A program made the translations under genes and the position numbers. DNA of 64,000 nucleotides, taken from the NCBI RefSeq assembly GCF_017348835.2, contig NZ_CP071375.1; one strand, written 5' to 3'. This stretch comes from Escherichia coli (lineage in GTDB: Bacteria; Pseudomonadota; Gammaproteobacteria; Enterobacterales; Enterobacteriaceae). Positions 23,200 to 23,839 of the stretch are shown one piece after another; position 1 is the first letter of the stretch; every line of letters begins with the position of its first letter. The notes under the pieces were generated by a model that worked only from the letters and a program-made list of their open reading frames with translations, was not told where the DNA came from and did no database searches.

Positions 23200-23203
23200 A
23201 GCG

Positions 23204-23221
23204 ATTCTCCATGAGGAAAAT
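23204..23221 (-). promoter_or_regulatory. candidate FourU-type RNA thermometer hairpin sequestering the chuA Shine-Dalgarno
   Basis: Minus-strand RNA AUUUUCC-UCAU-GGAGAAU: UUUUCC can pair with GGAGAA 6-11 nt upstream of the chuA AUG. Confidence 0.5.
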
Positions 23222-23488
23222 AAAAAATGCTGGCTGCCTGGGTTAATACCGGGGTGGCTGGCGAAAAATAAATTTATTTAAAATTCAGAGCGATAATATT
23301 CGCCGGGTGAGTTTACAGGCGTTTATATCCCATGAAATTGCCTGATAACTCGGCAATTACGCAAAAGCACGCCCTCTTTGTCAGGCAAAACGATATGCCC
23401 CATCAGGAGTGAAGAGAGCTGTGCGTTATCCCTTGCAAATGCTATGGTTTTGTTATCCATATGGTCGTGTTTTGTTAAATGCAAACGT

Positions 23489-23507
23489 GATAATGAGAAT
23501 TATTATC
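23489..23507. promoter_or_regulatory. Fur box (chuA promoter, about 290 nt upstream of the chuA start)
   Basis: gataatgagaattattatc matches GATAATGATAATCATTATC at 17 of 19 positions. Confidence 0.65.
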
Positions 23508-23839
23508 GATCAATTTTTTATGATCAAGTTTTTTTTTAACCACCATTAACACAATAAACAGGGGGTTATGAAACCTATCCTGCGCCCTGTAAACCACCTT
23601 GTTTTTATGGTTATCCCCCCATGCCTCATCACTAAATTTTGTCGTTAACAGTGATAATTTTTTCTTCTCTTTGCTCTGCAAGCCTCGATATCTCTGGGTT
23701 CTCAGCTTTTTCCTGCGATGAAATTTAGTCGGTAACAAGAACGTTAGCTGACGAAGCATCTTGATAAAAATCAAAAATAAATACGCTTGTAACGCCTTGC
23801 GTATTGAATCGACGGTTGTATTTCATATATAACTCAAAT

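Follow-up and report, generated by a model that had tools for sequence, protein, structure and literature searches.

The control region of chuA in the stretch of Escherichia coli DNA analysed here (contig NZ_CP071375.1 of assembly GCF_017348835.2; the window, of 64,000 nucleotides) is a published system, in which a Fur-controlled promoter, a long leader and an RNA thermometer of the FourU type govern a haem receptor gene. We put the probability that the locus is this known chuA/shuA arrangement at about 0.93. The element is a textbook case, with which control of a nutrient-uptake gene by an RNA thermometer was, to our knowledge, demonstrated for the first time. A preliminary description of the region, made from the sequence alone, was right in its observation and in its interpretation, both of which were already known, and re-deriving a known thermometer from raw sequence adds nothing to existing knowledge. 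What had gone unseen is a reason for the length of the leader. The leader probably is a decayed slot of hemP, occupying the position that this small gene holds in other enterobacteria; this is the new element of the analysis, and it amounts to a modest comparative footnote.

The regulated gene, chuA (21217..23199, minus strand), encodes a TonB-dependent haem receptor of 660 amino acids and was identified from the list of open reading frames (ORFs) and from the RefSeq annotation of E. coli records 99.6-100% identical to the window (100% at this locus for strain PE164, 99.6% for O157:H7), in which chuA and shuT flank the leader. The A of its start codon is at 23199 (AUG at 23199..23197), and negative positions below are counted upstream from it. 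chuS lies downstream of chuA, and chuTWXY diverge on the plus strand. For comparison we used 80 loci encoding ChuA relatives (57-98% amino-acid identity, one genome per species), of which 78 were analysed and aligned (alignment A1); subsets of 73 usable non-Escherichia loci and of eight Escherichia sequences are referred to where they apply.

The preliminary description placed the best Fur box about 290 nt upstream of the chuA ATG and took this to imply a long 5' untranslated region (UTR), and both claims hold. The box (GATAATGAGAATTATTATC, 23489..23507) matches 17 of the 19 positions of the consensus GATAATGATAATCATTATC, and its centre is 299 nt upstream of the ATG. With up to three mismatches allowed, the window contains four matches (two sites, each found on both strands), where 0.04 would be expected by chance, and across nearly all 78 loci the centre of the best box falls 290-310 nt before the receptor ATG. 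Differential RNA sequencing in enterohaemorrhagic E. coli Sakai gives a chuA 5' UTR of 291 nt (PMC9002310), and reverse transcription PCR in S. dysenteriae narrows its length to 278-342 nt (PMC3660397). With 291 nt, the transcription start falls at about 23490, inside the Fur box, which spans roughly -17 to +2 relative to it.

A promoter-like site (23499..23527, minus strand) with 9 of 12 matches is found in the expected place, with a -35 hexamer TTGATC (23527..23522), a 17-nt spacer and a -10 hexamer AATAAT (23504..23499). A promoter scan on its own returns such sites no more frequently than chance, and what speaks for this one is its position, which fits the published start site, and its alignment with other genera. 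Near consensus and overlapping the -10 hexamer and the start site, the Fur box is that of a Fur-repressed sigma-70 promoter in the ordinary occlusion geometry and not a remote operator. Calling it distal, as had been done, is therefore apt for its distance from the ATG only, the box being close to its promoter. Repression of shuA/chuA transcription by Fur and iron is attributed to Torres & Payne 1997 and Mills & Payne 1997 in the citations given by PMC9002310, PMC3660397 and PMC5458455.

At the other end of the leader, immediately upstream of the start codon, lies the hairpin that was proposed to sequester the Shine-Dalgarno (SD) sequence (23204..23221, minus strand). It consists of AUUUUCC (23221..23215), a UCAU loop (23214..23211) and GGAGAAU (23210..23204), the SD itself being GGAGAA (23210..23205), five nt before the AUG when counted from its last A (seven for the GGAG core). 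The hairpin is present as first read, except that a stem of six pairs is too short: a seventh, A-U pair closes it (A-U, U-A, U-A, U.G, U-A, C-G, C-G). UUUU (-21..-18) pairs with the AGAA of GGAGAA, one pair being U.G, which bears out the suggested FourU type. The sequence is identical at 32 of 32 positions to the consensus of the Rfam family RF02597 (shuA_thermo; 23197..23228, minus strand; model positions 1-32 of 32), with a covariance model score of 60.1 bits against a gathering score of 58 (E 1.1e-8). It also agrees with the element of Kouse et al. 2013 (PMC3660397) in position (-29..+3, directly 5' of and including the start codon), in its 7-bp stem with the SD in the 3' arm and in its 4-nt loop. 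The chuA element is thus a member of this family and differs from it in nothing.

Folding at 25 and 37 °C, which had been suggested as a check, gives the hairpin as the minimum free energy (MFE) structure in three of four contexts (32 nt, 100 nt and full leader; ViennaRNA, 25-42 °C), with pair probabilities of 0.89-0.98. Nothing counts against the published mechanism, but three results of the folding qualify it. The hairpin's energy (-6.1 kcal/mol at 37 °C, z = -2.2) is modest when taken alone, as 5 of 200 dinucleotide shuffles are at least as stable. In the full leader the mean probability of an unpaired SD is still just 0.035 at 42 °C, up from 0.005 at 25 °C; the nearest-neighbour model thus predicts only slight opening at 37-42 °C, and thermosensing is not readable from such energies. 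In the 51-nt context, moreover, an alternative helix made with a more distal U6 tract is about equally probable (0.45 vs 0.52 at 37 °C).

An energy only 2.2 standard deviations below shuffles, along with a promoter scan that does not rise above chance, is what one would expect if hairpin and Fur box were chance features of AT-rich intergenic DNA with no regulatory role. That explanation has practically nothing left to it, given the Rfam match over the curated cut-off, the chance expectation of 0.04 for the Fur box and the conservation of the hairpin, which is perfect in a diverging background. Seven further Escherichia sequences, E. albertii among them, have a hairpin region that matches the window at every position (100%); identity to the window drops to 59-85% for the leader interior of the diverged lineages, and chuA third codon positions of the three most diverged sequences (L035, L056 and L045) are 76-82% identical. 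Published mutational and reporter experiments (PMC3660397, PMC9002310) had in any case already refuted it.

In those experiments, ShuA/ChuA is made at 37 °C and not at 25 °C, with the mRNA level unchanged (Kouse et al. 2013, PMC3660397), and the 32-nt element alone transfers this control to gfp. Mutation U-19C, which turns the U.G pair into C-G, stabilises the hairpin and abolishes expression at 37 °C; C-17A in shuA or U-19A in chuA destabilises it and relieves repression at 25 °C (PMC3660397). Positions -19 and -17 are 23218 and 23216 in the window, and the numbering is confirmed by Sy & Tree 2022 (PMC9002310), who repeated the thermometer test with U273A, the same position -19. The temperature control invoked by the preliminary description is accordingly borne out by reporters and by mutants, at -19 in both studies and at -17 in the first, and the start-site mapping, the reporters at 25 and 37 °C and the U-to-C mutant that it proposed had all been published, with outcomes as predicted (PMC3660397, PMC9002310).

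The arrangement works as follows. When iron is present, Fur occupies the 19-bp box over the -10 hexamer and start site (about 23490) and blocks transcription. When iron is absent, the 291-nt leader is transcribed. Rho terminates part of the transcripts near +271, and the leader is a target of small RNAs, of CyaR upstream of the hairpin and of RyhB and Esr41 at the ribosome site. In the last 22 nt before the AUG, UUUU(CC) pairs with the SD GGAGAA in the 7-bp hairpin, which is stable enough at 25 °C to exclude ribosomes and open enough at 37 °C to allow translation. The Fur, leader and hairpin steps have been shown by published experiments. To these the present comparison would add the origin of the leader, whose length would be that of the slot of hemP, a small gene kept between the Fur promoter and the receptor gene in every other genus sampled.

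The case for a hemP slot starts from gene content. An intact HemP ORF (PF10636) lies between the Fur box and the receptor ATG in 73 of 73 usable non-Escherichia loci and in none of the eight Escherichia sequences. The ORFs in the slot of Citrobacter and Limnobaculum match PF10636 in Pfam with E values of 1e-17 and 2e-16; the domain follows the pattern ...LLG..G...I.H.G..Y.LR.T..GKLILTK. A DNA profile of the non-Escherichia loci aligns to the leader of the window in two pieces only (nhmmer). The 5' piece (-338..-208, E 2.6e-9) takes in the -35, the Fur box, the -10 and ATGGATAAC, the start of hemP; the 3' piece (-80..-1, E 1.6e-18) takes in AAATAA, a conserved box and the SD up to the AUG, so that this alignable edge reads AAATAA, then the GCCAGCC...CAGGCAGCCAGC box, then the SD. 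A comparison of the leader with the upstream regions of other genera by blastn likewise finds the flanks only.

Both edges coincide with the ends of the gene. AAATAA (23274..23279, minus strand), with which the 3' nhmmer match begins, would be what is left of the final hemP codon and its stop, as it lies at the modal stop position (with -74 as the base that follows the stop), and alignment A1 sets CTGA..AAATAAA opposite the ...CTGACTAAATAA (LTK*) of hemP. The putative relic ATG (-261) and TAA (-77..-75) thus occupy the modal start and stop positions of the 73 intact genes. The distance between the two, 187 nt, leaves them one base out of frame; the five intact genes whose length was measured span 165-189 nt (54-62 codons plus stop). 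When the DNA from ATG to TAA is aligned globally to the 73 hemP genes, the median z is 2.7, against about 0 for two negative controls.

What lies between these edges speaks against a hemP relic. With 15 nt trimmed from each end, the median z of the same alignment falls to 0.84. A hidden Markov model (HMM) of HemP scores at most 0.4 bits in the three frames of the eight Escherichia leaders, where shuffles reach 3.7, and a frameshift-tolerant alignment of the leader interior to the HemP profile does not rise above shuffles. The leader ORF has no Pfam match at E <= 1, and tblastn finds no HemP-like match anywhere in the window. Kluyvera hemP DNA has no match in 5,426 complete E. coli genomes, though a search at the DNA level could miss a distant paralogue. 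A HemP coding signal in the leader interior was consequently rejected after the Pfam, HMM, tblastn and frameshift-tolerant searches, and the claim is limited to a positional relic with alignable edges: the leader has the slot position of HemP/PF10636 and lacks the domain match.

The silent interior may instead be unrelated DNA of similar length that replaced hemP. It nevertheless looks as an old relic evolving neutrally would: when the window is compared with Kluyvera or Pseudocitrobacter, even the four-fold degenerate sites of chuA show an identity of just 39-42%. We consider a decayed hemP slot the probable origin of the Escherichia leader, judging from the edges and positions described above. 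It would account for the length of the leader and for the restriction of conservation to the promoter, the last 32 nt and a box of 34 nt. A hemP-derived shuA/chuA leader is not stated in the searchable literature on hemP/hmuP and chuA/shuA, a coverage that leaves Wyckoff 1998 and Amarelle 2019 outside. hemP goes unmentioned in Kouse 2013 (PMC3660397) and in Sy & Tree 2022 (PMC9002310), and Jaworska et al. 2018 (PMC6158557), who state that a homologue of hemP is missing from S. dysenteriae, present the two loci as different in organisation and do not trace the shuA leader to hemP.

The slot varies elsewhere in the sample. In five Buttiauxella loci (L036, L039, L040, L049 and L067) the hemP stop is 200-290 nt upstream of the receptor ATG, compared with about 75 nt elsewhere, with some 130-220 extra nt between hemP and the conserved box; an Rfam match of this extra DNA to V_AS5 is not credible (31 bits against a cut-off of 96). 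Within Escherichia, the leader of Escherichia sp. MOD1-EC7003 (L001) carries a 125-nt insertion at -128 (approximately L001:1373-1497), which moves the Fur box to -429 and leaves box and hairpin intact. We take this insertion (...GAGCTTACATAAGTAAGTGA...GCCAACGCACATGCAACTTGAAGTATGACGG) to be a candidate ERIC/IRU repeat.

The leader still holds an ORF of 46 codons (MDNKTIAF..., 23323..23460, minus strand), which appears broken and whose start ATGGATAAC (23460..23452) aligns with that of hemP. It is conceivable that this ORF is a functional, diverged HemP-like leader peptide, its translation controlling access of Rho or expression of chuA: its ATG is at the hemP start position, in a sequence common to other genera, and the segment required by Rho (+177..+217) begins shortly downstream of its stop (about +169). 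The ORF nevertheless has no Pfam match and no visible SD upstream of its ATG, and its interior diverges about as fast as the third codon positions of chuA. Nor is its frame kept among Escherichia lineages: L001 has lost the start codon (ATT), L056 has GTG in its place, and the stop lies variously at -123, -100 and -157. We therefore regard a functional peptide as very unlikely and a relic of the hemP start as the better account of this ATG.

Several published results on the leader take on a meaning if it is a hemP slot. Rho-dependent termination at +271 requires +177..+217 (PMC9002310), which, converted from +1 = 23490, is 23274..23314 (minus strand), the 3' end of the slot. The absence of translation there is a suggested reason for the strong repression and for the loading of Rho at this segment. 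The T4 truncation, which starts at +217 and raises expression 9-fold (PMC9002310), begins at -75, right at the relic stop codon, and its effect fits the hemP-slot reading. Further upstream, a sequence scan finds a weak terminator-like hairpin (five pairs, three of them G-C) followed by the T run UGCUUUUG (23362..23387, minus strand). The T run ends at 23362, that is at +129, exactly where Term-seq places a 3' end in PMC9002310, a study in which ARNold found no intrinsic terminator; we infer that the hairpin and T run correspond to this 3' end.

Apart from promoter and hairpin, the only conserved part of the leader is the box already mentioned, GCCAGCCACCCCGG (23262..23249) ... CCAGGCAGCCAGC (23241..23229), which occupies 34 nt at -63..-30 (23229..23262, minus strand). 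Its columns in alignment A1 (GCCAGCCACCCAGG ... CCCAGGCAGCCAGC) are invariant or near-invariant in all 78 sequences, and an exact search of the window finds each half nowhere else. The box resembles the one quoted sequence of an HmuP/HemP-responsive element (HPRE) from C. violaceum, a likeness to a single sequence and not to a formal consensus. The HPRE is described, in what de Lima et al. 2022 (PMC9131926) quote of Amarelle et al. 2019, as lying upstream of haem receptor genes. As far as that quotation goes, what the two have in common is a motif rich in GCCAGCC / CAGCCAGC, some tens of nt before the ATG, C. violaceum chuR having CCCGCAAGCCAGCCGACAGCCAGCCAGCG at -26 (PMC9131926); the difference is that Escherichia has no recognisable HemP for such an element to respond to.

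Next to the box is the distal U6 tract (23222..23227, minus strand), the 5' arm of the alternative helix, hereafter S2, which in alignment A1 is homologous to the SD-pairing CUUUUC arm of other genera. In E. coli, S2 would pair U6 with GGAGAA, AGC with GCU and, across the AUG, GGCA with UGUC; in other genera AGCGCUUUUC...GGAGAGUUGCU and GGCA...UGCC would form a 14-pair helix over SD and AUG. Over 75 distinct sequences, 91.7% of the cells of S2 are paired, a share that drops to 46-58% in the slid-partner control, and one compensated change from C-G to U-A is specific to Escherichia. The proximal FourU hairpin, hereafter S1, is 88.4% paired across the alignment, its outer pairs falling in gaps for a third to half of the sequences. 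For neither helix does covariation exceed shuffle controls on most measures, the sequences being too conserved; S2 is favoured family-wide because of the slid-partner control and one compensated pair only. For the region -45..+6 at 37 °C, the median predicted stability is -9.6 kcal/mol in Escherichia, compared with -15.4 kcal/mol in the other genera.

Could S2, then, be what mainly holds the SD in E. coli, the published 7-bp hairpin being secondary? It would be the structure common to all genera, going by its 91.7% pairing and the compensated Escherichia pair, and it is the MFE structure of the 51-nt E. coli context, with a probability of 0.66 at 25 °C. Its 5' arm also lies just downstream of the published site of CyaR, whose mechanism is unexplained. 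In the 32-nt, 100-nt and full-length contexts, however, the probability of S2 is at most 0.04, and in Escherichia the helix is weakened by an A.C mismatch, a U-A for a C-G and a G.U for a G-C. Mutations at -19 and -17, moreover, fall in the loop of S2, yet shift expression as the proximal hairpin predicts (PMC3660397). We accordingly consider it improbable that S2 is the main lock in E. coli, and hold to the published hairpin as the thermosensing structure.

CyaR itself activates chuA from a site about 15 nt upstream of the hairpin (PMC9002310), about where the conserved box lies, and relieves an 'additional repressive element' by a mechanism that PMC9002310 leaves unexplained; ChiX represses chuA indirectly (PMC9002310). 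Binding of CyaR in or next to the box would make this relief fit an ancestral helix and box.

Put together, these observations would allow a fuller history, which we offer as tentative and think somewhat more apt to fail than to hold. Escherichia and Shigella would have lost HemP, kept its RNA target box and weakened S2 into a hairpin that heat can open, and the Rho termination in the leader would be polarity resulting from the lost translation of the upstream ORF. If true, a protein-dependent switch was converted into a thermometer. The prediction is that orthologous receptors, those of Enterobacter, Citrobacter and Kluyvera among them, are controlled by a far more stable helix, which HemP may open in place of heat. 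Two Pseudocitrobacter loci (L003 and L062) have an intact hemP together with an Escherichia-type proximal hairpin (AUUUUCC...GGAGAGU) and the distal arm. Because they keep both, the FourU-type hairpin is not strictly tied to the loss of hemP. RF02597 itself scores at E <= 1 in only one of 12 representative orthologous loci, that of E. albertii; as modelled, this family does not extend beyond Escherichia/Shigella.

FourU thermometers are a class defined by mechanism and not a homologous family. The elements of Salmonella agsA (RF01795) and Yersinia lcrF share the principle with chuA, four U pairing with the AGGA/GGAG of an SD (U.G included) in a short hairpin opened by heat; they show no similarity of sequence or model, RF01795 having no match in the chuA region at E <= 10. 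Elements of the agsA/lcrF type also sit in a short heat-shock UTR, whereas that of chuA ends a leader of 291 nt. Similar in organisation are the hemP-hemR operons of Enterobacterales such as Yersinia, which likewise have a Fur promoter about 300 nt upstream and a U-tract SD hairpin before the receptor gene, among them the FourU-like hairpin of the hemP1-hemR1 spacer (PMC6158557). In these, however, the 300 nt encode HemP, and HemR1 of Y. enterocolitica is reported not to be thermoregulated (PMC6158557).

The divergent side of the locus has a thermometer as well. shuT/chuT (Wei et al. 2017, PMC5458455) is likewise under Fur and temperature control and differs from chuA in its 42-nt UTR, in having one hairpin only, of a type other than FourU, and in a Fur site just downstream of the start site (PMC5458455). 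The second Fur site of the window (GATAATCATGATCATTCTC, three mismatches, 23840..23858), outside the chuA leader, belongs to this divergent promoter. The chuT ATG is at 23882, and the box starts at the very base that the published distance of 42 nt between shuT start site and ATG would make the chuT transcription start, in agreement with the Fur site reported directly after the promoter and with the separate shuT thermometer (PMC5458455).

Between the two promoters, a spacer of about 330 bp contains an ORF of 26 codons (MKPILRPVNHLVFMVIPPCLITKFCR, 23568..23648, plus strand) preceded by a strong SD (AGGGGG). It was rejected as a gene candidate, since its start codon is lost or its frame broken in other Escherichia lineages, and it is probably not a gene. 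Weak Rfam matches near the leader (snoR25, Hammerhead_HH9, mir-743 and RUF1), all far under their cut-offs, were disregarded.

Lastly, the leader of one strain seems to be a mosaic. In E. coli MS20657 (L081, a blood isolate from Finland) the first 350 nt of chuA (+1..+350 of the gene) are 97.4% identical to the window, while the leader interior (-284..-86) is just 59-84% identical. This sharp boundary near -86 suggests recombination within the leader. The chuT gene of the same strain is annotated as frameshifted.

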